Shown in pieces: positions 10,072-39,481 of a DNA stretch of 40,442 bases. Origin of the DNA: a virus; IMG/VR virus record IMGVR_UViG_3300031949_000092, positions 1-40,442 of that record, one strand, 5' to 3'. Both the position numbers and the translations under genes were made by a program. The notes below the pieces were generated by a model. It was not told the DNA's origin. It made no database searches and was given only the letters and a program-made list of their open reading frames with translations. Positions within the stretch are counted from its first letter, which is position 1; every line of letters starts with the position of its first letter.

Positions 10072-11073
10072 TTAATCTTCGTCTACATAGACCTCTGTAG
10101 CGTTCAAGGTGCTTCTGTAATTACCAGAGTGAATATCTGTTGCTAATACGTCCATCATGTTTGTGCAAGCGAAGTAGTTTCCACAAAGAGAAGTTACACC
10201 AGTTGCTCCCGCAGGAATACGAACTGCTGCTGCGAAAGTATTGGCACTATCTCTGAAAGAATTATCTCTTATAAGAGTTCCAACCGTTGTTGACGCTGCG
10301 TAAAAGTCAATTCCGTAGTCAGTACCGTCACTTGCTTCAAATTCATTCCTTCTAATAACTGGTCTCTGAACTGTCCTTCCACCGCCTGGTGTTATATAAA
10401 TTCCTGCGTTATCCCACTCTTCAAAGATATTGTCCTCAATAAGGACGTTTGCTGAGCACCCGTCAAGCACTAATCCGTAAGTTCCTTCATTTCCGCCTCT
10501 AAATACACAGTCGTGAACCCAGCAGTTTGCAGAGTTTCCGCCACTCCCCGTCTTTCCTGAACCTGTTACATTCACACCGTCACCGATATACATACCTCCG
10601 TATCCGCCTCCACCGTCAAAAAGGAATCCTGCTACCTCGCAGCTTCTTGCCATTAGCAAAAATGAAAATCCGCTCACGCTCACGTTTCCAACCATAGGAT
10701 ACTTAGTTGTTGCGTCACCCGGTCTGAATTGGTTTTCCCATCCGTAAGTTGCCGAATAAATCCTAACAGTTGGAGTTGTAACTAATACATTTTCCTTCCA
10801 CTTGCCTTGAGTCGAGGATGCCGGCATTACAATAACCGTATCGCTCCTATCTGCCTCACAAGCATCATGGGCTGCCTGAATTGAAGTTTGAACAGCCGTT
10901 GAACCGTCTGGGTAAGTTACATCATGTTCTGCCTTGAACCTGTCATATTCTGCATGGTCTGAGTGAATGGCATAATAGACATTACCCCAGGGATTGAATC
11001 CACCGCCCACGGTGTCACTACCGAGCCATTTTGCTCCTCTATGTACTGCTGGAAAATAATTTCTTGCTAACAT
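10072..11073 (-). CDS. Right-handed parallel beta-helix (pectate-lyase-fold) protein; candidate tailspike or depolymerase
   Basis: Repeated PbH1-like turns are visible: NCWVHDCVFRGGNEG.., ANVLIEDNIFEEWDNAGIY.., PVIRRNEFEAS.., TLIRDNSFRD. Confidence 0.6.
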   Translation of the reverse strand: MLARNYFPAVHRGAKWLGSDTVGGGFNPWGNVYYAIHSDHAEYDRFKAEHDVTYPDGSTAVQTSIQAAHDACEADRSDTVIVMPASSTQGKWKENVLVTTPTVRIYSATYGWENQFRPGDATTKYPMVGNVSVSGFSFLLMARSCEVAGFLFDGGGGYGGMYIGDGVNVTGSGKTGSGGNSANCWVHDCVFRGGNEGTYGLVLDGCSANVLIEDNIFEEWDNAGIYITPGGGRTVQRPVIRRNEFEASDGTDYGIDFYAASTTVGTLIRDNSFRDSANTFAAAVRIPAGATGVTSLCGNYFACTNMMDVLATDIHSGNYRSTLNATEVYVDED

Positions 11074-11075
11074 AT

Positions 11076-11210
11076 TTAAACCTTTCCTGTCCCTTCACAA
11101 TTCGGACAATCGCTTCCATCTTCTAACTTACCTGATTCACACTCAGGACAAATACCATCAGAGATTTTTACTTCTAATTTCTCTTTTTTTTCTTTCTTTT
11201 TACCTGCCAT
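11076..11210 (-). CDS. 44-aa zinc-ribbon protein (CPEC...CPNC), not in the ORF track
   Basis: ATG at 11210, and the frame checked open to the TAA at 11078-11076. It has a Lys/Glu-rich N-terminus and two CxxC pairs. Confidence 0.55.
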   Translation of the reverse strand: MAGKKKEKKEKLEVKISDGICPECESGKLEDGSDCPNCEGTGKV

Positions 11211-11215
11211 AAATT

Positions 11216-11249
11216 AAAAAAGCACCTCGTAAGGTGCTAATTCCTTACG
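11216..11249 (-). terminator. Intrinsic terminator with an overlapping alternative (antiterminator-like) hairpin
   Basis: Minus strand reads CGTAAGG-AATTAGCA-CCTTACG-AGGTGCT-TTTTT. The hairpins AGCACCT/AGGTGCT (followed by a U-run) and CGTAAGG/CCTTACG are mutually exclusive. Confidence 0.7.
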
Positions 11250-11307
11250 GTATCCTGAATATTAAGCAAAAGCTTTTTTGGTTTTTAAACCGCTCTCGTC
11301 AATACCG

Positions 11308-12039
11308 TTATCTGTCTATCTCTAAGTAAACTAATGGGTATTCTGTTGCTACTACTGTGGTCGGTCCAGTTACACCGAACATTGGCTCGGTTACTGCGTC
11401 AACTACTTCGTATTGTCCCGTTCCGGTTCCTGCTCCGAATGTTATCTTGGAACCGATTTGGTCGTTTGCCTCGTCAGCCCATACTGAGCAAGGTCCCCAG
11501 GTTTGGATGTATCCATATTCACTTGTTCCAAGTCCGCCTACCATTATCGGGACTCCTGCCGGAACATAAGTTTGAGTTGTACTACTTTGAACCAGAAGCT
11601 TGTCATATCTGTTGTAAACAAGGTCTGCGTTTGCCTCAGATACTGCTCCTGCGGTATCAACAGCTTCCTTTAAGAAAACCTCAAGTGTTCCGCTTGTAGA
11701 AGATTGAGCATTGTGACCTTCAATCGGATATGCCCTGCCCTCTCCTGTTCCGTCATTCACTACCAGCCAGCCGTCCTTGTATTGCTCTGCCGTTGCCGCC
11801 GTACCTCCGAGAGTTACTTTGACGCTTTTGTCGTTTACCGCCGGTGCTGTCTGGAAAGAAAGGTTATTATGATTAGCAATTGCTGCCGCTCCCGCTCCCA
11901 ACTTGCCTCTACCTATTGCGGTTGCGCAGAAAGCATAATGAAACACTCTGCCGAAAGCATCCTCGTAGCGCGTACCTAAAGATACTTGTCCTGCCGTTGT
12001 TCCTTGTGCTCCTGGTAATATTGCTGCTAGTTTACTCAT
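11308..12039 (-). CDS. Auxiliary head protein (decoration or cement candidate)
   Basis: 243 aa, starting 1 nt after the MCP stop. AGGAG lies 6 nt upstream of its ATG, and a terminator follows the gene. Confidence 0.55.
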   Translation of the reverse strand: MSKLAAILPGAQGTTAGQVSLGTRYEDAFGRVFHYAFCATAIGRGKLGAGAAAIANHNNLSFQTAPAVNDKSVKVTLGGTAATAEQYKDGWLVVNDGTGEGRAYPIEGHNAQSSTSGTLEVFLKEAVDTAGAVSEANADLVYNRYDKLLVQSSTTQTYVPAGVPIMVGGLGTSEYGYIQTWGPCSVWADEANDQIGSKITFGAGTGTGQYEVVDAVTEPMFGVTGPTTVVATEYPLVYLEIDR

Positions 12040-12040
12040 A

Positions 12041-13150
12041 TTAGACTCCTGTTATTGAATGGCCTTGACCGTTTACGTTTGGCCTCCAAGTTGCGATTTG
12101 ACCGATTACATAGAATCTTGCGATTGTTCCTGCCTGGTCGGGCATCATAAGGGGCGGTTGATAAAACCATCCGTTAAAGTTTGAGGGCATTTCCGCTTGT
12201 GCCAAACTCTCCGTTGCGTCTAAAGAACCCAGGTTTACTTTTTCAAGTCCAAGTTTTGCGTATTCGCTCGGTACTACCGTTCTTCCGAACCATCCGAGGG
12301 AATCTTCATTTAATTTATACCAAACAGCAGATGTCGCCTTTTTGTCCTTGATTACCGGCATTCCCCTGTGGTGGAGTGAAAGGAATCCTGCCGCTCCGCC
12401 CAATTTAGCATCAGCAGAACCCTCTCCTCTGACGCTCATCCTTGGAAAACCGCCTGAGTTGTAGTTGGCCCTGACCTGAGGGTCTAAAAGTTCCTCGTAA
12501 AGACTCCAAACTGCAAAAGTTGTTAAGTTAAGATTAGGTACTGCCGCGGCCTCTCCGCCCTTTGCGCAAGCGTCATCCAAAGTAGCAAGCTTGGCTAGAG
12601 TCATTGTTCCCCAGCTTGTGTAGGTTGCATCCAAGACGTCGTAGCTTGACCTTGTTTGTCCCCCGATTGTCGCTGCATTGGTTCCGTTGTCAACTATTGC
12701 CTGAAGGCCGTTTGGAGTATCTCCTGCTCCCGTCCCGTAAGCTGCCTCGGCTATCGCATCAACAGCTTCAAGTGCAGCCTCTTCATACTTATAGGCATCC
12801 AAAGGAATAACTCCCTCCGGTCCTGCGTTTGCGAAAGACTCTAACATTATGCTCACTTTGGGCTGCGTTCCTGCTGTGTGGGCGAATGAAAGAGTTATTT
12901 CATTGTCTTCTGCTGAAGAGTTTAAATTCTCAAGTCCGGTAAACCATTCAAATTGCGAGGATTGCTGGTACTTAATTGTCCAGTCCATTACAACTCCCCT
13001 GAATGGCTTTGCCTTGCCCATCAATCGGGAAAGATAAGTCGGAGCTTCTAATATAGTATCTACGACTTTCCCATGAAGCGCTCGTAATGTTTTACCCTCT
13101 ACTCTGTTTGAAGGGTTGATTCCATCGGGCGTTGTTGAAAATCCTGCCAT
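12041..13150 (-). CDS. Major capsid protein (HK97-fold type, inferred)
   Basis: 369 aa, positioned after the portal and scaffold genes. Size and composition are typical, but no search was run. Confidence 0.7.
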   Translation of the reverse strand: MAGFSTTPDGINPSNRVEGKTLRALHGKVVDTILEAPTYLSRLMGKAKPFRGVVMDWTIKYQQSSQFEWFTGLENLNSSAEDNEITLSFAHTAGTQPKVSIMLESFANAGPEGVIPLDAYKYEEAALEAVDAIAEAAYGTGAGDTPNGLQAIVDNGTNAATIGGQTRSSYDVLDATYTSWGTMTLAKLATLDDACAKGGEAAAVPNLNLTTFAVWSLYEELLDPQVRANYNSGGFPRMSVRGEGSADAKLGGAAGFLSLHHRGMPVIKDKKATSAVWYKLNEDSLGWFGRTVVPSEYAKLGLEKVNLGSLDATESLAQAEMPSNFNGWFYQPPLMMPDQAGTIARFYVIGQIATWRPNVNGQGHSITGV

Positions 13151-13160
13151 GTTTTATTCC

Positions 13161-13186
13161 AAAAAAAATCGGCTCCGTTGAGCCGA
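13161..13186 (-). terminator. Hairpin plus U8 between the scaffold and MCP genes
   Basis: Minus strand reads TCGGCTC-AACG-GAGCCGA followed by TTTTTTTT, ending 10 nt before the MCP ATG. Confidence 0.65.
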
Positions 13187-13205
13187 CTATTTTGTCGTTA
13201 GTATT

Positions 13206-13234
13206 ATTGTAAACTATCTGTCAAATATTAGCAA
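13206..13234 (-). promoter_or_regulatory. Sigma70-like promoter TTGCTA-N17-TACAAT upstream of the MCP leader hairpin
   Basis: -35 at 13234-13229, a 17-nt spacer, and -10 at 13211-13206. Confidence 0.45.
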
Positions 13235-13239
13235 ATCAG

Positions 13240-13965
13240 CTAGATATTGCCTGCCGCTATCTCTTCAAAGCTCTTCTCTTTTATATCCTTGTACTTAAAG
13301 CTTTCCCCTGTTTCCCTTACTTGGGTATTGCCGCTTATCGGTAAATCTGCCCCCGGCGGTCCTTCCAAAACTTGCGGGTGTGCGACCAATATATCTGAAA
13401 TGCTGGGAGTGTATTCAATCCCCTGTGACCTGTTTTGCTCAATCATCTTGCCTATAGCCAGAATAAGTTTCTTTCTTGCGTCATATCCGGCGTCGCCTTC
13501 TTTGGCCTCTTTCATTTGAGGAACTTTGCCTAGCTTCGAAAGCTGGTTGTACTGCGTGTACCAGCCTTGTACTATTCCGTTTATCCTCTCCTGCCTTTGT
13601 GTTTCGGATTGCTTTTCTTCCTTCTCGCCCTCCTCCTCCAGTTTGGCGAACCTTTGCTCCAGTTGCTCATTTACTATCTTTTTAAGAGCATCGGCATCTG
13701 TTGGTAGGGCTTCCTCTTGCTTCTTAGTCAGTCCAAGAGCATCTCCTATCTTCTGGATGACGGATTTGCTTACTTCCTGACTTACAACGCCCGATACGTC
13801 CTTAGTAATTGAATCTTTTAATGAAGCTACCTGCTCGTCTGAAAGTTGCGCTTGCGGTGTAGTCTGAGGTTGTTTCTCGCCTTGAGGTTGAACTTCCTTA
13901 GTCGGAACTTCCTTTGGTATCTCTTGGCCTTTATCCTCATTATTTTGAGCTTTATCGTCAGCCAT
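13240..13965 (-). CDS. Scaffolding protein
   Basis: 241 aa, highly charged (E, K, Q) and helical in character, located between the portal and MCP genes. Confidence 0.65.
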   Translation of the reverse strand: MADDKAQNNEDKGQEIPKEVPTKEVQPQGEKQPQTTPQAQLSDEQVASLKDSITKDVSGVVSQEVSKSVIQKIGDALGLTKKQEEALPTDADALKKIVNEQLEQRFAKLEEEGEKEEKQSETQRQERINGIVQGWYTQYNQLSKLGKVPQMKEAKEGDAGYDARKKLILAIGKMIEQNRSQGIEYTPSISDILVAHPQVLEGPPGADLPISGNTQVRETGESFKYKDIKEKSFEEIAAGNI

Positions 13966-14166: not shown

Positions 14167-16134
14167 CTAACGATTAAAAAGCTTGCTAATCGCACCCGTC
14201 GCTTTTCCAATCAGATTACGAGGCGAACCGCTGGGTACTTCACTAACCGCCTGTGGATTCTGAGGTGAGGGTTGCATTGGTGGTTGGGGTTGGTAAGGCC
14301 CTTGAGGATTACCGAAACTCATTAAGTTCTGTTGATTCATTCCCATTACTTGGTTGGCCACGTCCTGTAACTCCATTCCCTTAGCATACTTTTGGATATA
14401 CATTTCGGGGTTGGTCTGGAACATAAAAAGCATCTCGGCTCTTTTTTCGGCGTCGGTTCTACCTACATCTTGGAAGTAGTTAATAGGGTCGATTAAACCT
14501 AGAGTTGCTTCTTCTTTCGCCATGCGCTCTCGTTTTAGTTTGTCCGTTCCCGATGCCTTGATTGACACTTCCAGTCCATCCTCAATAACATCTGAAGTTA
14601 ACCTTTCTTGAACTTCTCCTCCTTGCCTACCTATTAGTAATTGAAAGTGCTGTGAAGTGTACCTCAATTTAAACATGTGCAAGAGTGCCTCGGCCATCTC
14701 TGTCGCTACCTTGTTTATAGCCAAATCAGAGAAATCATCGGCAATCGTAAAACTTGCCTCTCTTTGGATTTGGGTAGTTGTGGCAACGTCGCTTGTCAGC
14801 TCACCGCTTGCCGCACCCGATATATGAAGTTTCTCCTTCACTCTTTGCTTAGTCCTTTCCAAGTCACCGAACATGGCTTGGCTTGGCTGCTCCTTTTTAA
14901 TGAATGCGTGTACTTCTCCCAAATTGCCGTCTACGACAATATCCTCATCGGGGTCGTTCAAGTCCATCTCCTCAATGGTTTCCTTTTTAAGGCCGGACAT
15001 CGTTGAAAAGACGTGCTTGCCCCTCGCGTCGTCTATCATCTTGGTTATCTGCATTCCACGAGTGTCGTAATTGTCCTGAAGAAGCCTGTTCTCCTCTATG
15101 CGTGATATTTCGTCAAAAGCCGACTCGCCGTATTGCTCATAGCCCATGAATATAAACGGCTTCCTCGGCTTCCCGAAGTAGTTTCTGTAAACAGTCTTCA
15201 TCTCAACACCCGGAACCTGCATACCCATCATCGAGATTTGTGGTAGCATCTCATCCGATACCGGCTTTCCGTTGAAGAACGGCTTTTCCTCGCCGTCCCA
15301 GTCCCAGTTGGGGTTCTTCCTCTTGTCTAAGATGCTCTTCTCGCCCTTGCCGGCTTTCCAGAGTATCCCGCTCATGCTCTCGAACTCCGGCTCTTTGGGG
15401 TCGAAGTTCTCGGCCTTTTCTTTCCAGTCGAACCATATCTCCTGCACTTTTAAGTCGAACGCCCGACCCTCCTCGTCGTTGGTTTCCTTCCAACCTTTAT
15501 CCCTTGCGAAGTCCTTTAACTCATCCTCTTTCTCAGGGAATAAGATTATCCAATCGTAAAGGCACCTCTCTACCTCGTGGATGATGAGCTTCATGTATCT
15601 TTCGTTATTCTTGGTGGCGGAGGTGTCTATCTTTATATACTTAGCCGGTATGACTTCCCACTCAATATCGCCCAGCTTGCCCTTGCTTGAATTCCAGTAG
15701 TATTTAATTACTCCGGTTAAATCTAATGAATGCCGCCTGAAAGCTAGAGTAAGAAGTTGTTTAAGCTCGTCGCTTTGAAGAGTCTTGTTTACAGCCTCGC
15801 TGATTAAGTCGGCAACTTCGGTGGAAACCTGTGATTCAGCGCCGGGGTTAACGATTATGTCGGGAAGCCTCGAAAGGACTAAGGTACGAAGCGTGTCCTC
15901 GCCTTCCTTGATTACATTGTCTATGTACTTCTTCTCGTAGGTTTTTAATTCAACGTCATCTAACTGCCTGCCGAATAAATACTTTGTGTTGGTTTTGCGT
16001 CTTTCGGTAAGTTTCTTGGTCTTATCAAATTCGTCGTATTTCTTCTCGTACTGCTCAATAAAGAAAGCCAGCTTTTTATCCTCTAAGTCGAGATTTAATA
16101 CAGGGGCCGCCTCTTTTCCTTGTTCTTCTTCCAT
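14167..16134 (-). CDS. Portal protein
   Basis: 655 aa, located downstream of TerL (a 96-aa ORF intervenes) and upstream of the scaffold and MCP genes. It has a Pro/Gln-rich C-terminal tail. Confidence 0.75.
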   Translation of the reverse strand: MEEEQGKEAAPVLNLDLEDKKLAFFIEQYEKKYDEFDKTKKLTERRKTNTKYLFGRQLDDVELKTYEKKYIDNVIKEGEDTLRTLVLSRLPDIIVNPGAESQVSTEVADLISEAVNKTLQSDELKQLLTLAFRRHSLDLTGVIKYYWNSSKGKLGDIEWEVIPAKYIKIDTSATKNNERYMKLIIHEVERCLYDWIILFPEKEDELKDFARDKGWKETNDEEGRAFDLKVQEIWFDWKEKAENFDPKEPEFESMSGILWKAGKGEKSILDKRKNPNWDWDGEEKPFFNGKPVSDEMLPQISMMGMQVPGVEMKTVYRNYFGKPRKPFIFMGYEQYGESAFDEISRIEENRLLQDNYDTRGMQITKMIDDARGKHVFSTMSGLKKETIEEMDLNDPDEDIVVDGNLGEVHAFIKKEQPSQAMFGDLERTKQRVKEKLHISGAASGELTSDVATTTQIQREASFTIADDFSDLAINKVATEMAEALLHMFKLRYTSQHFQLLIGRQGGEVQERLTSDVIEDGLEVSIKASGTDKLKRERMAKEEATLGLIDPINYFQDVGRTDAEKRAEMLFMFQTNPEMYIQKYAKGMELQDVANQVMGMNQQNLMSFGNPQGPYQPQPPMQPSPQNPQAVSEVPSGSPRNLIGKATGAISKLFNR

Positions 16135-16442: not shown

Positions 16443-16458
16443 TAATTAATTGTATCAC
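16443..16458 (-). promoter_or_regulatory. Extended -10 promoter fused to the ATG (GTGATACAATTAATTA-ATG)
   Basis: TGnTACAAT with 6 nt to the ATG. The TG is supplied by the TGA stop of TerL. Confidence 0.6.
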
Positions 16459-17825
16459 TTCGTAAATTTTGACAAGTCTATTCTGTGAGCGGCGGTGGGT
16501 GATATGAATGGCCTTTGCTTCGGCCTCCCTATCGTGCCAAGTGCAACACCTATTTGTTTTGCAAGACGGTACGACATCTCAAGGGCGTCAAGTGCATCCA
16601 AATACTCTACATCGGGATATTCCTGCATTTCATTCCACAATTCATTTCCTCCCTTAAAAAGAATTTGCCCTGTATTTATCAATGGTTCCATGCCCTCTAT
16701 CCTCTCCTCTTTCTTTCTTTTCTGCTCCAAGCCTATAAATGGTATGTACTTGCCCAGAGCTTTGGACTTATCCTCGATAACCTTTAGGAAATACTTTTGA
16801 AACTGTATTGCCTCGATACCAAACCTGTCGAACTTATATGGTAAGTTTAGAATCCTCCTTATTGTTTCATCCGGCACGACCTGCTCTTCGAAACTTTCGA
16901 CCTCGTAGACTTGGCCTTTTTCGTCGACTCCTAGGACTACCATTCCCACCTTGCTTCCTTTTATCGCTTCCCCTAAAGACAAATCAACCGCACCGCAATA
17001 AACCAATTCAGTTGGCAGATACTCATACTTTTTTGGTTTGAAGTAGGCATATTCGGCTGGATTAGGAAATTCTACTAAATAATATCTTTTCCAATCCTTT
17101 GAGGTAGTTTGTCCTTTCTTCTCCTCAAGATACTTTCTGGTAAATCTTCCTTCTTCAATGGCTTGGTCTAAACTTATTCTTACTTTGTGGTAAAGCGGGT
17201 TATTGTAGGCTTTCTCGAACACGCTCTTTTCAATGCAGTTACCGCTCATTATTAACTTTCCCCAACCTTTTGTTTCCTCCGGCATTCTGACTACTTTTGA
17301 GAATTGCTCTTCGCTTCGTATCAATCCTGCTTCCTCCAAAATAACTATATCGCCGCCCTCTCCAACAACTCTTTCTCCCTCTCGGCTCATTGCCCTTGAC
17401 TCAACTGATGTTACATAAATCCAACCGCCATCTGACCATCTTAGTCCCTGCTTGCTCATAATAATTTTTAATCTTTCAATTTTTTCCGTGTCTATACCAA
17501 TTAAATTACTATAAAGAGGCTGAGAATCTGATACATGAGAAATTACATATTCCATAATTTTATTTGCTTTTTCCTGCGTTCCTGCAACTACTGGTATCTT
17601 TAAATGCCTTACACTAGCCAAATAAATAAGAGCCAAAGCAAGAACCTCTGTTTTTCCATATCTTGTTGGAGCTGATAACCAAAGCCACTTAATCTTGCGA
17701 TTCATTATTTCAGAAAACATTTTCGCCTGACCAGAAGTTAATTCGTAAGGATTTCTTTTGGAGTCTACAAAGTGGCTCTTAACTAGCTTTTTGTATGCTT
17801 CCTGCTTTAAGTTTTGGTCTTTCAT
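16455..17825 (-). CDS. terL: Terminase large subunit
   Basis: 456 aa with Walker A-like SAPTRYGKTE and Walker B-like DIVILEEAG, plus a C-terminal nuclease-like acidic region. Its position follows TerS. Confidence 0.85.
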   Translation of the reverse strand: MKDQNLKQEAYKKLVKSHFVDSKRNPYELTSGQAKMFSEIMNRKIKWLWLSAPTRYGKTEVLALALIYLASVRHLKIPVVAGTQEKANKIMEYVISHVSDSQPLYSNLIGIDTEKIERLKIIMSKQGLRWSDGGWIYVTSVESRAMSREGERVVGEGGDIVILEEAGLIRSEEQFSKVVRMPEETKGWGKLIMSGNCIEKSVFEKAYNNPLYHKVRISLDQAIEEGRFTRKYLEEKKGQTTSKDWKRYYLVEFPNPAEYAYFKPKKYEYLPTELVYCGAVDLSLGEAIKGSKVGMVVLGVDEKGQVYEVESFEEQVVPDETIRRILNLPYKFDRFGIEAIQFQKYFLKVIEDKSKALGKYIPFIGLEQKRKKEERIEGMEPLINTGQILFKGGNELWNEMQEYPDVEYLDALDALEMSYRLAKQIGVALGTIGRPKQRPFISPTAAHRIDLSKFTK

Positions 17826-18880: not shown

Positions 18881-19220
18881 TCCTTGCTCCTTCCGCCTTT
18901 GCTTTTATCAATCTGCCAACTTCCCTTCAAGTCCTTCCAAACATATTTTGCGTTCTTTACTTGTTCTTGAGTAACTTCTAAACCGCTTGTTGAATATTCG
19001 TCTAGATACTCCCGACTAAGCACTCCCCCCCTAAATGGCTGTAAAGCGTCTTTCCTGAATTCACGCCTTCCTTCTTTAATGCTTTCGCTAGTCCATTCTC
19101 TTTCATAGTGCGGTTTGTCTTTGTCTTGTCTGCAAACTTTACAGAAAGTTACTCCATAAACTTCGTCAATTTCTGCCAGCCGTTTATTACAATTACCACA
19201 GAGTATTTTTTTTTAATCAT
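18853..19220 (-). CDS. Zinc-ribbon protein whose ATG is separated from the body by a -1 frame change in an A9 run
   Basis: ATG-ATT-A9 at 19220-19206 (ATGA overlap with the GroEL stop). The 113-codon open frame (CGNC...CKVC) is reached only by a -1 slip or if the run is really A10. Confidence 0.5.
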
Positions 19221-20803
19221 TTCTTTTCCTCCTCAATCTCTGCGACAATGCCTTCCGCAGTAGTGAGAGATATTGCAACTGCAACTGCATTATTTAATGC
19301 TTCAACTAAAACTTGAGTGGGATCAATTATGCCTTCTTTCATCATATTGACAACATCTTCAGTGACAACATTAACTCCATATCCAAATCCTTTTTCTTTT
19401 ACTCTCAACGTCATTTCTCCACTATTTAGCCCTGCATTTCCAAGCAATTTATCAAATGGCTTTCTAATCGCATTTTTTAATATTCGATAAGCATAGTCTT
19501 CATCTTCAGTTTCGGGTTTTAAAACATCATCTATAAACAAAAGAACTGTTTCTCCCCCAGGAACAACCCCATCCTTGATTGATGAGCGAGTTGCAAGGAT
19601 TGCATCTTCACAACGCTCCCTGCGTTCTTCCGCTATAGATTCAACATGTCCCCCCACTCTAATAACATAAACTCCCCCGGTCAGCTTAGCCAGCCTTTCT
19701 CTTAATTTCTCTCTATCAAATTCTTTCTCTTCCTCTTTTAACTGGTTCTTTATTGAGTTAATCCGTTCCTTGATTTTCTTGGGGTCGCCCTTGCCTCCCC
19801 GGATAGTCGTCGCCTCTTTTGTAGAGACTACCTTGTCGGCGTGTCCTAAATCTTTTAATTCAATCTCTTTTAGTTTCATTTTGGCATCGCTTGAGATAAA
19901 CTTCGCACCCACAACCGTCGCTATATCCTGAAGTATGTTTTTGGTGTTGAAGCCCGGTGCCTTAATTGCCAGCATATTCGCCTTGCCGGTTACTTTATTA
20001 TTTATCAAGCTTACCAGTACCATGCCCTCTATGTCTTCCGCTATAACTACAAGGTTTTTCTCCTTTGCCTCGTTCATTTTTATAAACAAGGGCTGAATTT
20101 CAAAAGCGTCATCTAGCTTGTAATCGGTGACCAATATGTTTGCGTTACTTACCGAAGCGGTCATGTTGTCGGGATTTGTCACAAAGTATTCGGTCTTGTA
20201 GCCTGAGTCTATCTGCAAACCCTCCTGATGGTCTATAAAAGTATCCGGTCCCGTTATTTCCTCTGCCGTTATCACCGCGTCAACTCCTGCTTTCTCGTAA
20301 GTTTCGCCTATCAGTTTGCCCATTTGCTCATCCTCCGAACTTATCGTAGCCACTTGGATTTTCTGCTCTTTAGTCTTAACCGGAGTAGAGAGTTCCTTAA
20401 TCCTTTCAACAAGCAAGTCCCGCCCTTTCTCTAAACCGCTTCTCAAACTCATTGGATTTATACCAGCATTCGTAACTTTTAAAGCTTCTTCCATTATTGA
20501 ATAAGCTAGTAAAATCGTTAATGTAGTACCATCTCCCACACTTTCCACAGTTTCTCTCGCGGATTGCTTAATTATCTCCGCTCCTGCACTCTCAAATGGG
20601 TTTTTAGGATTAATGGTCTCACTAACTTTCAGACCATCATGAAGTAATTTTGTCCTGTGTGGTTGCCAAGTAACAATATTTCTGCCACGAATACCTAATG
20701 TAGTTGATACGGCTCGATTTACTCTACTCGCACCTTTTAGTAGTTTTTCTCTAGCTTTTATCCCGTGTATTTCTTTGCTATATTTCATGGATTTATTTCC
20801 CAT
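19217..20803 (-). CDS. groEL: GroEL-type chaperonin (Cpn60)
   Basis: Motifs VGDGTTLTILLA, AIKAPGF, LTGGVYVIRVGG and DGVVPGGE are present. It ends EIEEEKK with no GGM tail. The ATG at 20788 gives a canonical N-terminal length. Confidence 0.9.
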   Translation of the reverse strand: MGNKSMKYSKEIHGIKAREKLLKGASRVNRAVSTTLGIRGRNIVTWQPHRTKLLHDGLKVSETINPKNPFESAGAEIIKQSARETVESVGDGTTLTILLAYSIMEEALKVTNAGINPMSLRSGLEKGRDLLVERIKELSTPVKTKEQKIQVATISSEDEQMGKLIGETYEKAGVDAVITAEEITGPDTFIDHQEGLQIDSGYKTEYFVTNPDNMTASVSNANILVTDYKLDDAFEIQPLFIKMNEAKEKNLVVIAEDIEGMVLVSLINNKVTGKANMLAIKAPGFNTKNILQDIATVVGAKFISSDAKMKLKEIELKDLGHADKVVSTKEATTIRGGKGDPKKIKERINSIKNQLKEEEKEFDREKLRERLAKLTGGVYVIRVGGHVESIAEERRERCEDAILATRSSIKDGVVPGGETVLLFIDDVLKPETEDEDYAYRILKNAIRKPFDKLLGNAGLNSGEMTLRVKEKGFGYGVNVVTEDVVNMMKEGIIDPTQVLVEALNNAVAVAISLTTAEGIVAEIEEEKK

Positions 20804-21101
20804 AAACCATCAACACTTTTCCGAACGGAACTATCCTGAATTGCTCACCCTCAATCTTGAAAGTCTCGAATCCGCCCGCTGAATGAACAAGTGTTTGTCC
20901 GACTTTTACCGGGGATTCGACTATTAGCTTTCTTTCTTCGTCATAATAGGAATCACCAACTTTCAGGACTTTTGCCAACTGTGGGAATTCATCAGCGACT
21001 ATTTCTATTCCTTCGCTTGAAGTTTTATCGAGAGGTTCGACGAGTATATATCCGGCGACAGGTATGAAGTTTTCTATTTTCATCGGTATATTTTTTACCA
21101 T
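20793..21101 (-). CDS. groES: GroES-type co-chaperonin (Cpn10)
   Basis: About 100 aa, overlapping groEL by 11 nt. The pattern GYILVEP...GIEIV...AKVLKVGD...VKVGQTLV resembles Cpn10 beta-barrel spacing. Confidence 0.65.
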   Translation of the reverse strand: MVKNIPMKIENFIPVAGYILVEPLDKTSSEGIEIVADEFPQLAKVLKVGDSYYDEERKLIVESPVKVGQTLVHSAGGFETFKIEGEQFRIVPFGKVLMVYGK

Positions 21102-33233: not shown

Positions 33234-34175
33234 TTATGCCTCCGCTATTGCGACTACGATATTCCAAGTAGGAGTTGCCGAATTATAAATACAACCTATA
33301 TAGTGAGTTTTATTGGCTACTGTAGTTGTGGGAGCCGTGCATCCAATGGCTGTAAATCCAGTCCAAGTTAAACCTTTAGCCACTCCTGCGTCTTTAAGTC
33401 TAATTATTAGTTTTTGCCCATTAACAGGCGTTCCTGTAACTGTAAATTCCGTAGCATTAGCAATAGCAGTTAATTGATATTGGTCGGTAACATCAACATC
33501 TATTACTGCGGTTGCGTCATCCGTAGTCGTAACCACTCTCGGAGATATTCTTTTATTGGTCATCGTAACCGTTCCACTTGCAACATGAGCCTTAACCGAT
33601 TGCTGAGAGGGTACTTTGGTAGCTGAGTCTGTCGCCATATCATCCTCATCTAACATCCAAGCCGCACCTGATAATGAGGTCATGTCGTGAAGCCCGTCGG
33701 GAGTTACTGCAAGCGTTGCTGATGTCCCCGTTGTTGTCTCCGCCGTAGTTGCTAATTCAACCTTGCCTGCCGTAGTTGAATCCGCAGCCGTCACTAAATC
33801 TGTTACATCACTGTCAACTGATACAACGCCCGTATCTGCCCTAATAACCCCTGTAAGCCCCACAGGTAAGGTCACAGTCCCTGTAAAAGTAGGGGAGGCA
33901 AGAGGAGCTGCTCCCAAAGAGGTTAAGGCTGCTGCTGCACTTGTAGCGCCTGTTCCTCCTTGTGCCACCGATAAGGCGGTAGTAAGGCCAGACAACGATG
34001 TAATATCAGAGTTGGCACCCGAAGCCGCAAGACCGCTGATTAAATTAGACCTTGTAATATTTTTGGAAGTTCCATCGGCTGAGTCTGATGTGTCACTTAC
34101 ATCAACAATATAAAGTTTATCTCCAGAAGCCACCGAAGATAAACCCGTCAGAGAAGTTAGTTTGCTATCAGCCAT
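33234..34175 (-). CDS. Tail fibre protein
   Basis: The N-terminus has SKLTSL..L...DKLYIVD and LSVAQGGTGATSAAAALTSLGAAPLASPTFTGTVT, a widespread phage fibre motif. Confidence 0.8.
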   Translation of the reverse strand: MADSKLTSLTGLSSVASGDKLYIVDVSDTSDSADGTSKNITRSNLISGLAASGANSDITSLSGLTTALSVAQGGTGATSAAAALTSLGAAPLASPTFTGTVTLPVGLTGVIRADTGVVSVDSDVTDLVTAADSTTAGKVELATTAETTTGTSATLAVTPDGLHDMTSLSGAAWMLDEDDMATDSATKVPSQQSVKAHVASGTVTMTNKRISPRVVTTTDDATAVIDVDVTDQYQLTAIANATEFTVTGTPVNGQKLIIRLKDAGVAKGLTWTGFTAIGCTAPTTTVANKTHYIGCIYNSATPTWNIVVAIAEA

Positions 34176-34830
34176 AAATAAATTCCTCCTTTCTCATTCT
34201 CGGATTCATATAACTTTTAGTTTTTTTATGGCAGTCCACGCAAAGTGTCCTACCATTGTCAATAGCAAGTCGTAGTTCTGGAAATAAAGCAAAGGGTTTA
34301 ACGTGGTCAGCGTGCAAATCGGTATTACCCCTTACTCCACATTTAGTACAACTATAATTATCTCTAGTAAAAACGGCTATCCTCCACAAGAGATATTCCG
34401 TAGAAGTTCTAATTTTATGATTTAACGGAGTAATTCCACCCTTCCAAGATGGATTTTCTTTTCCACGATAATGTGGAAGTCTTCTTGCACTCCCTAATTT
34501 TTTATGTGTATTACTCATTTTTTTTCTAGTTTGTTTAGAAGATTTTTTACCATACATCGGATTTTTGTTACCCATTTTTGTTTCACTTAAATGTTTTTTA
34601 GTAATTTCGGTGTGTTTAAAACCTAATCCATTTTTGTTCCCTATAAGCTTCTTCCTTATTTTTATACGAGTTTCTGGTTTCATTGGATGTTCTTTGCCCT
34701 TCAGTGAGATAGAGTAACATTTATGACTACAAAATTTACTGTCTTTAAAGACAGGAGAAACTAAATATTTTTCTGAACAAGTTAAGCAAATTTTTTCAAC
34801 TTTAGCATAGTTCCATGGTCTATTTATCAT
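34168..34830 (-). CDS. HNH homing endonuclease with NUMOD-like repeats
   Basis: HADHVKPF...NGRTLCVDCHKKT is the HNH core. It also has repeated GKxHP/GNKNP..K motifs and the N-terminal CxxC..CSHKCY finger shared with 7809-8369. Confidence 0.8.
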   Translation of the reverse strand: MINRPWNYAKVEKICLTCSEKYLVSPVFKDSKFCSHKCYSISLKGKEHPMKPETRIKIRKKLIGNKNGLGFKHTEITKKHLSETKMGNKNPMYGKKSSKQTRKKMSNTHKKLGSARRLPHYRGKENPSWKGGITPLNHKIRTSTEYLLWRIAVFTRDNYSCTKCGVRGNTDLHADHVKPFALFPELRLAIDNGRTLCVDCHKKTKSYMNPRMRKEEFIYG

Positions 34831-35423: not shown

Positions 35424-35478
35424 AAAAATACTCCGTCTTTTGAACGGAGTTATTTCTCCTTAATAAATTATAACACAC
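35424..35478 (-). promoter_or_regulatory. Extended -10 promoter, AAGGAG at the 5' end, terminator-like hairpin, U-run, then AUG
   Basis: Minus strand reads GTGTGTTATAAT-TTATT-AAGGAGAAATAA-CTCCGT-TCAAAAG-ACGGAG-TATTTTT-ATG. The architecture matches 39429-39481. Confidence 0.6.
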
Positions 35479-39428: not shown

Positions 39429-39481
39429 TAAAAAATAAAACCCCAGCGGTTTGCTGGAGTAGTTTCTCCTTATTTATTATA
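39429..39481 (-). promoter_or_regulatory. TATAAT, AAGGAG at the 5' end, terminator-like hairpin, U-run, then AUG (second copy of this architecture)
   Basis: Minus strand reads TATAAT-AAAT-AAGGAGAAACTA-CTCCAGC-AAACC-GCTGGGG-TTTTATTTTTTA-ATG. Confidence 0.55.

Follow-up and report, generated by a model that had tools for sequence, protein, structure and literature searches.

A stretch of 40,442 nucleotides (nt) of viral DNA, the whole of IMG/VR record IMGVR_UViG_3300031949_000092 from position 1 to 40,442, is referred to here as the window. In this window the head genes and the tail genes are separated on the minus strand by a 97-nt spacer, and our results suggest that the spacer is probably a three-helix transcription attenuator, consisting of an anti-antiterminator (helix P1), an antiterminator (hairpin A) and a terminator (hairpin B). 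In the sequences compared, the three helices exist, overlap and are kept by compensatory change in relatives, and the core of the sensor hairpin closed by P1 is constrained in sequence. From these features we infer that B terminates transcription, that the balance between A and P1 sets the read-through, and that a trans-acting factor reading the invariant core shifts this balance. An earlier note on this DNA had proposed a decision point at the head/tail boundary made of A and B. The competing A/B structure holds up and is kept in relatives with changed arms, while the conditional nature of the control is what the conservation of the sensor points to. The parts of the spacer are as follows.

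11308-11310, minus strand: stop codon (UAA) of the gene for a 243-amino-acid (aa) protein; P1 starts with its last base.
11301-11308, minus strand: P1 5' strand ACGGUAUU, 8 base pairs (bp), the last pair an invariant U.G (from the intergenic minimum free energy (MFE) fold and covariation).
11295-11300, minus strand: core 5' half, with the GAC bulge at 11300-11298 and the GAG strand of helix P2 at 11297-11295 (invariant in 17 of 17 sensors).
11260-11294, minus strand: variable P2-loop insert, of 35 nt in the window, with UAAUA at its 3' end (from the alignment).
11255-11259, minus strand: core 3' half, with the UUC strand of P2 at 11259-11257 and the AG bulge at 11256-11255.
11247-11254, minus strand: P1 3' strand GAUACCGU; it ends in CGU (11249-11247), the three bases with which A begins.
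11243-11249, minus strand: hairpin A 5' arm CGUAAGG, the putative antiterminator (from sequence, folding and relatives).
11228-11234, minus strand: hairpin A 3' arm CCUUACG, identical to the B loop together with the 3 nt of the B 5' arm before it.
11221-11238, minus strand: hairpin B, AGCACCU/UACG loop/AGGUGCU, the putative intrinsic terminator stem-loop, 7 bp with four G-C pairs.
11216-11220, minus strand: terminator U-run UUUUU, then AAUUU (from sequence).

On the minus strand, CGTAAGG (11249-11243) is followed by AATTAGCA (11242-11235), CCTTACG (11234-11228), AGGTGCT (11227-11221) and TTTTT (11220-11216). The sequence and coordinates reported for 11249-11216 are thus exact, as are the AATTT that follows and the ATG at 11210. 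The 5' arm of B occupies 11238-11232, and its last three nucleotides together with the whole UACG loop are covered by the 3' arm of A. Because the 3' arm of A is made of these very bases, A and B cannot coexist, which agrees with the mutual exclusion that had been described. Folded alone, B has a free energy of -9.4 kcal/mol and A of -7.8 kcal/mol (z-scores of -4.5 and -5.7, respectively, against dinucleotide shuffles), and the MFE of the 35-nt segment, -11.8 kcal/mol, is reached with B formed. A 33-mer of the element occurs a single time in the window. B has the G+C-rich stem (5-14 bp), short loop and immediate U-run of an intrinsic terminator. A simple terminator scan of the window also lists both hairpins, but the scan over-calls (22 sites against 15.3 +/- 4.0 expected) and a match to it is therefore no evidence by itself. 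A Shine-Dalgarno role for the 3' arm of B (AGGUG) is unlikely, its distance from the AUG being 12-15 nt.

Relatives of the spacer were found through the 243-aa protein, which has 146 homologues in metagenomes; the DNA around these was taken from viral and metagenome contigs, and the spacer after the gene was read in at least 115 distinct loci (designated L with a number). A hairpin with a U-run follows the homologous gene in more than 20 relatives, and the stem sequences differ among them.

The earlier note had supposed that some factor might stabilise A directly. This is probably not the case, and helix P1, which overlaps the first bases of A, is the likelier control point. P1 closes a conserved hairpin upstream, at 11308-11247, that was absent from that note. 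The sensor consists of P1 ending in U.G, then GAC, GAG, a loop, UUC, AG and the P1 3' strand, where the loop is either 4-5 nt of any sequence, as in minimal relatives, or an inserted hairpin. In 17 aligned sensors 13 core bases are invariant while the adjoining protein is only 29-64% identical, and the core is unchanged in further instances outside this alignment. P1 itself covaries in the same 17 sequences, with changes on both sides at six of seven pairs and 94.7% of cells paired; its covariation score is 0.60 against 0.12 in shuffled alignments (none of 500 shuffles reach it) and 0.07-0.08 in slid controls. A covariance model built from the sensor alignment (R1) has one match in the window, at 11247-11308 on the minus strand (35.1 bits, E-value 3.4e-6), and matches in related loci at this genomic position only. 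In all 12 elements computed, 2-4 nt belong both to the 3' strand of P1 and to the 5' arm of A. Since A shares its first bases with a covarying P1, the logic would be three-tiered, with an anti-antiterminator, an antiterminator and a terminator.

Several other readings of the conserved core were considered and rejected. Its conservation is not coding: the gaps within it (4, 5 or 15-37 nt) vary in length without being multiples of three, and no common reading frame is maintained, the window and L126 differing in this respect. A promoter reading of TTGACG was also dropped, some members having ATGACG and the distance to -10-like hexamers varying by more than 30 nt. A pairing partner for the core (CUCGUC or CCUGAA) was sought within 200-250 nt and none was found, save for single cases in L012 and L166. 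In L012, at 1034-1115 and where a local hairpin A is missing, the core AUGACGAG is fully complementary (8 of 8) to CUCGUCAU within the terminator 5' arm and loop, and the sensor core could itself be the antiterminator strand in this lineage. As a separate observation, the terminal UAAUA of the insert can pair with GUAUU of the P1 5' strand, giving an alternative fold in which the P1 3' strand would be available to A. This decoy fold is part of the MFE structure predicted for the nascent RNA of the window, and L177 has the feature too, probably through common descent.

The overlap between A and B recurs among the relatives. An A helix of 6-9 bp (-6.6 to -11.9 kcal/mol) is present in 19 of the 23 loci with this architecture, where it takes up the B loop and 2-4 nt of the adjacent 5' arm of B; in many loci the partner stretch lies 5-18 nt upstream. 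There are 12 distinct versions of its outer six pairs, among them CGUAAGG, GCAAAGG, CGAUAUGA, UUGCAGG, GCAGAAGGU and UAAUUAAGA, and the covariation score of A is 1.21 against 0.28 in shuffles, with none of 1000 shuffles reaching 1.21. The arms of A in individual loci are given below.

L006, L087 and L126: A arms CGUAAGG/CCUUACG, with differing B stems.
L009: A arms CGUAAAGA/UCUUUACG.
L179: A arms CGUAAGAGU/ACUUUUACG.
L013: A arms CGAUAUGA/UCAUAUCG, with B stem AACCCUCA/UGAGGGUU.
L155: A arms UUGCAGG/CCUGCAA.
L010: A arms GCAAAGGA/UCCUUUGC.
L166: A arms GCAAAGG/CCUUUGC.
L174: A arms GCAGAAGGU/ACCUUUUGC.
L165: A arms UAAUUAAGA/UCUUAAUUG.

These comparisons bear on the possibility that A is a chance complement lying beside an ordinary terminator. 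A 7-bp complement within 30 nt is not extremely rare, and the pattern scan calls too many terminators. Against this, in 1000 shuffles of the 45 nt upstream of B, with B itself left unchanged, the stability of A (-8.1 kcal/mol in context) is matched by a competitor with p = 0.001, and the per-locus shuffle p-values for the A helix in relatives range from 0.001 to 0.09. At other terminator-like sites, in the loci and the window, a competitor of -6.5 kcal/mol or better is found in only 7 of 109 cases; two of these seven are family members and two are one inverted repeat in L306, which puts the frequency of competitors at ~3-6%. Plain long-loop terminator relatives at the same position (L004, L086, L028 and L022) have no competitor better than -3.1 kcal/mol. 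The overlap, with its changed sequences in 19 of 23 loci against few controls, rules out a chance origin of A and, as far as sequence comparison can tell, A is selected as a helix; coincidence is scarcely credible as an explanation.

Folding predictions are consistent with an exchange between the helices. In all 11 relatives tested with RNAfold, the full-length RNA folds into P1, P2 and B, and RNA cut before the B 3' arm folds into A. In nascent RNA, with either helix enforced, full P1 and full A differ by -4.5 to +2.5 kcal/mol, and in full-length RNA P1 with B is favoured by 3.5-16 kcal/mol; in the model, the switch is poised, judging by the near-equal nascent energies. For the window, A is predicted with a probability of 0.96-0.99 as soon as its 3' arm is exposed and up to 2 nt short of the end of B, after which the fold flips to P1 and B. 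In minimal elements the barrier from A to B, estimated with findpath, falls from ~12-14 to ~5-7 kcal/mol when the P1 5' strand is available, and these figures are upper bounds because the estimates use nested structures only. They concern the minimal elements; in the window and in L177, both with long inserts, the A state carries a different insert fold.

The attenuator reading leads to the following proposal. P1, A and B are transcribed in this order. A occupies the B loop and, next to it, the inner three bases of B's 5' arm, while a fully zipped P1 would hold the outer three bases of A, so that A could be attacked by P1 at its outer end and by B at its inner end. When the sensor is folded and held shut, A would be cut to 4 bp and B would form with the polymerase still on the U-run; with B formed in time, transcription would end after the head genes. 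When P1 is frayed or kept open, A would form first and last, and transcription would read through into the gene for a 44-aa protein, the gene for a beta-helix protein and the tail genes. Because termination needs B while the polymerase is on the U-run, A would act as a kinetic trap for B to displace. We consider a protein effector, from phage or host, more likely than a metabolite, since the genes under control encode structural proteins and show no visible link to metabolism.

The three helices could also act with nothing being sensed, A and P1 setting a constant termination efficiency and hence a hard-wired head:tail ratio, and the conserved core being a site for RNase processing or for stability, or else a signal for translation of the following gene. 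Such a fixed, tuned leak would fit the usual leakiness of terminators in phages (PMC9163698), the relatives with a plain terminator or a plain loop within P1, the sensors without a terminator in L015, L023 and L281, and the fact that no effector was found. For a constant leak, however, the strength of the stem or of the U-run would suffice, two extra covarying helices in ~20 lineages would be an expensive means, and the near-equal energies of full P1 and full A together with 13 invariant bases look like those of a switch. We therefore regard a fixed leak as unlikely.

A third possibility is that the ribosome does the sensing. On this explanation a ribosome ending at the stop codon of the head gene would mask the P1 5' strand, allowing A to form and transcription to read through, while in untranslated or uncoupled transcripts P1 would fold and transcription would terminate. 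In the window P1 begins with the final base of the stop codon, and the predicted probability of A at 90-96 nt goes up from 0.00-0.04 to 0.13-0.53 if nt 1-13 are masked. Among 30 elements P1 starts -3 to +1 nt from the stop in 10 and within 10 nt of it in 16, but in the other 14 it starts 11-74 nt past the stop, beyond the reach of a terminating ribosome. No leader peptide was found, and coupling would leave the invariant core unexplained. The ribosome may be an added input in some lineages, the window included, but it cannot be the general mechanism, and as an explanation of the element it is quite improbable.

It is very unlikely that the spacer is the body of a small RNA (sRNA) derived from the 3' untranslated region, with the conserved core as its target-pairing seed. 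The succession of hairpin, terminator and U-tail is like that of many sRNAs, and the weak Rfam matches are all to terminator-shaped sRNAs; these matches are far under the gathering scores. The core lies mostly in helices and bulges, leaving no single-stranded seed, the conservation of A would be unexplained, and there are sensor-only versions directly before a start codon that have no terminator.

A number of observations weigh against the attenuator that we prefer. The loci share ancestry and are not independent, and the counts among relatives overstate the number of independent events. The A helices were ascertained by a search for pairing, which makes their paired fraction 1 by construction. 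A local A is weak or missing in L012, L151, L164 and L165, and L004 and L005, which are closely related (84% and 69% protein identity), have just a plain terminator. The overlap between P1 and A is short, at 2-4 nt, and is 0 nt in L151 and L269. The interior of P1 is replaceable, as is seen in the variants described below. The barrier estimates ignore the polymerase as well as pseudoknotted toeholds, the AGCA in the A loop being free to pair with UGCU. That B stops the polymerase of the host, whichever host this may be, is assumed from its canonical features. Among the proteins of the window no RNA-binding regulator was recognised, and no effector candidate was identified. On the other side, what is found is an antiterminator that shares bases of the terminator 5' arm, covariation in both of these helices, and the closing helix of an upstream sensor in competition with the antiterminator, as would be expected of an attenuator.

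The sensor slot is not always filled by the same structure. The hairpin of the window, which we call type I, is replaced in six sequences by a type II sensor, a three-way junction (P1-UGNU-P2-CAUUG-P3-UAG-P1') in which P1 again ends in U.G and whose RNAalifold structure has six covarying pairs. Other P1 interiors are a plain 14-nt loop in L087 and something else in L183. Type II, L087 and L183 elements keep the overlaps of P1, A and B. As the interior of P1 is replaceable, the three-helix platform can work without the type I core. In the sensor-only lineages L015/L029, L023 and L281 a type I sensor without a terminator lies directly before the next start codon; riboswitch families likewise come with a transcriptional or a translational platform. 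A third motif was observed in the spacer after the 243-aa homologue in L018, L021, L032, L034 and L178, with the form P1(CCUU)-U(G/U)AC-P2(variable, covarying)-AG-P1'(AGGG). It has the layout of type I with a free P2, lacks a terminator, and is placed just before the ribosome-binding site of another gene, tail-fibre-like (N-terminus ..LEDxxPxxKY..). Possibly this motif is related to the type I sensor and acts on translation.

In the sequences scanned, the type I sensor is found at one genomic place. An unbiased pattern scan covering 2.9 million viral contigs returned 119 matches; P1 is lacking in 109, which are attributable to chance. Ten passed the P1 filter, and two of these (L251 and L317), without terminator or A helix, also look like chance. 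All eight true hits tested are at the boundary between the MCP-proximal head gene and the tail genes (MCP being the major head protein); seven have the order MCP, 243-aa gene, sensor, and L335 has MCP, sensor, beta-helix gene. In L174 and L335 the order is MCP, switch, beta-helix gene, 243-aa gene, from which it follows that the element tracks the head/tail boundary and not the 243-aa gene. In 185,579 species genomes the pattern ATTGACGAG N4-5 TTCAGGAT has 120 matches; in the 12 that have any P1-like pairing on their flanks, neither a terminator nor an A helix lies alongside, and inspection of the pattern suggests that these are coding (I-D-E-x-x-Q-D). We tentatively speculate, while holding it to be doubtful, that the type I hairpin and the type II junction represent two sensor RNA classes, both new, which respond to one effector, either a protein reporting the state of assembly (such as unassembled head protein) or a small molecule, and that they time the tail genes against the head genes in uncultivated phages of a widespread group, possibly of Saccharibacteria or other members of the candidate phyla radiation (CPR), acting through the shared terminator platform or, in the sensor-only variants, through the ribosome-binding site.

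The genes around the element, in the order in which they precede and follow it, are listed here (ORF, open reading frame).

16455-17825: terminase large subunit.
14167-16134: 655-aa ORF without a family match; its assignment to the usual place of a portal or scaffold gene is a guess from position.
13240-13965: 241-aa ORF without a family match, likewise only by a guess from position in the usual place of a portal or scaffold gene.
12041-13150: major head protein, MCP (phrog_9953, E-value 1.8e-22).
11308-12039: 243-aa all-beta protein, of a fold without a known match.
11076-11210, minus strand: 44-aa ORF, the first gene past the switch, with a Lys-rich N-terminus and CPEC...CPNC.
10072-11073: 333-aa beta-helix protein (PF13229), followed by the tail genes.

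The earlier note placed the element after two head genes, presumably the most abundant ones. One of these is now identified as the MCP gene, and for the 243-aa protein a role as head decoration protein is a guess from position. The 243-aa protein has a confident structure model (predicted local distance difference test score of 88), which has no significant match in the PDB (the best capsid-related matches have E-values of 0.04 or more), and its sequence has no match among GenBank phages. The gene that had been described as a 44-aa zinc-ribbon gene is where it was said to be, and the order from there into the beta-helix and tail genes is also as described; the zinc-ribbon label depends on the cysteine pattern, the sole Pfam match being below the cut-off. 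In relatives (L001, L005, L013, L126, L166, L175, L179 and others) the post-switch gene was observed to be variable and always small and Lys-rich, encoding a CxxCxGxG zinc-finger-like peptide, an ADYGDF-motif peptide or a GFYKGY..W(L)R..PDHPDF peptide, and the beta-helix gene comes next.

Further features of the window were noted in passing. A strong terminator-like hairpin (9 bp, then U8) lies at 13167-13188 on the minus strand, ends 17 nt upstream of the ATG of the MCP gene, and has no competing hairpin; a promoter-like TTGCTA-17-TACAAT stands ahead of it at 13206-13234 (minus strand), and the same arrangement of hairpin and promoter-like sequence upstream of the MCP gene is found in L001 and L006. 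The MCP and 243-aa genes are in this way bracketed by two terminator-like hairpins, each followed by a U-run, an A/U-rich spacer and ATGG. At 34168-34830 (minus strand), among the early/middle genes, an HNH endonuclease is encoded that has a NUMOD3 motif and is probably of the homing type. Look-alike sites of the early region at about 39441-39459 and 35431-35449 (minus strand) have the form TATAAT..AAGGAGAAA..short hairpin..T-run and are possibly repeated promoter/leader units.

The DNA of the window has no similarity to GenBank phages, and the MCP has just two distant relatives in GenBank (28-32% identity). In MW202566 the spacer after the positionally equivalent gene is 22 nt, insufficient for the switch. 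In a prophage and host search, protein relatives were sought in the 185,579 species genomes and none were found. A GroEL-like chaperonin is encoded at 19217-20803 on the minus strand (PF00118, E-value 3.9e-48), with a GroES-like protein directly upstream at 20793-21101 on the same strand (PF00166). The TM7 (Saccharibacteria) phage DolZOral124_53_65, among the nearest GenBank phages by MCP, also has a Cpn60 gene, and one homologue of the 243-aa protein lies in a metagenome-assembled genome of Patescibacteria. The chaperonin, the MCP kinship and this homologue are a weak hint at a host among the Saccharibacteria or CPR.

Terminators with infection-dependent read-through recur in phage transcriptomics with no mechanism attached (PMC9163698), and the element offers a sequence-defined cis mechanism at the head/tail boundary of a late operon, in a minimal form of ~60 nt (for example in L126 and L319). 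If an effector exists, there would be one or two new classes of regulatory RNA and a new coupling of phage assembly to gene expression; if there is none, the element would be a worked example of a head:tail ratio hard-wired by a kinetic RNA trap. Should the tentative reading with two sensor classes be true, no earlier riboswitch-like device would be known that gates the passage from heads to tails in the late operon of a phage. A catalogue of 2023 lists 8,495 candidate structured RNAs from IMG/VR (PMC10690425), and the type I motif may already be among them.

Rfam 15 gives no match at gathering scores in the window, terminator-shaped noise only in 11150-11350 at E-values up to 10, and nothing relevant, riboswitches and the PyrR site included, in 27 related loci at E-values up to 1. 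Similarities and differences with known systems are seen at the level of the device. In the PyrR-controlled pyr leaders of Bacillus and in OFF riboswitches (purine, TPP and SAM-I), as here, a sensor helix, an antiterminator and a terminator share bases in turn; in those systems the folded or bound sensor leads to termination, the sensor bases are conserved, and the platform helices covary freely. The element described here differs from them in having no Rfam similarity, in having a sensor as small as a 31-nt hairpin, in lying at the end of a coding gene within a phage late operon and not in a 5' leader, and in having at least two unrelated sensor folds in one slot. In the ribosome-controlled attenuators of trp and pyrBI, alternative hairpins are chosen when the ribosome covers the first strand, and in the window the first strand does start at a stop codon. 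The element differs in having neither a leader peptide nor regulatory codons, and in about half of the relatives P1 is out of the reach of the ribosome.

Other phage and bacterial RNAs resemble the element in part. Guanidine-III (ykkC-III) riboswitches have ACGAGG and UCAGGA stretches on different sides of P1 in an H-type pseudoknot; the type I core echoes these with GACGAG(G) and UUCAGGA, but both are within one hairpin. Membership in that family was rejected and the likeness taken as coincidence, the Rfam model having no match even at E-values up to 10, the topology being different and there being no guanidine gene context. A kink-turn was rejected on inspection of the alignment, the strand opposite GAC-GA reading AG-G and not GA, and readings as loop E, hammerhead, CsrA site or boxA/boxB were likewise rejected on inspection. 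The lambda nut elements (boxA/boxB) and HK022 put are hairpins that act in cis in phage RNA, have conserved loops or bulges and allow the polymerase to pass terminators; they modify the polymerase processively, without a hairpin that competes with a terminator, and they show no sequence or model match to the element. In its position, the element is most like the T7 terminator T-phi and other leaky post-capsid terminators, which likewise lie directly after abundant head genes and before tail genes. We know of no competing antiterminator or sensor helix at T-phi, whereas here two extra conserved helices overlap the terminator. Partial read-through after the T7 capsid genes is thought to set the head:tail ratio (PMC9163698, citing work on T7), and T7 balances its expression by inefficient terminators; in LUZ7 more than 60% of terminators are below 50% efficiency (PMC9163698). 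The device found here is of a known kind, an attenuator with a terminator, an antiterminator and an anti-antiterminator; it matches no Rfam family, and its placement at the head/tail boundary of a late operon is unusual.

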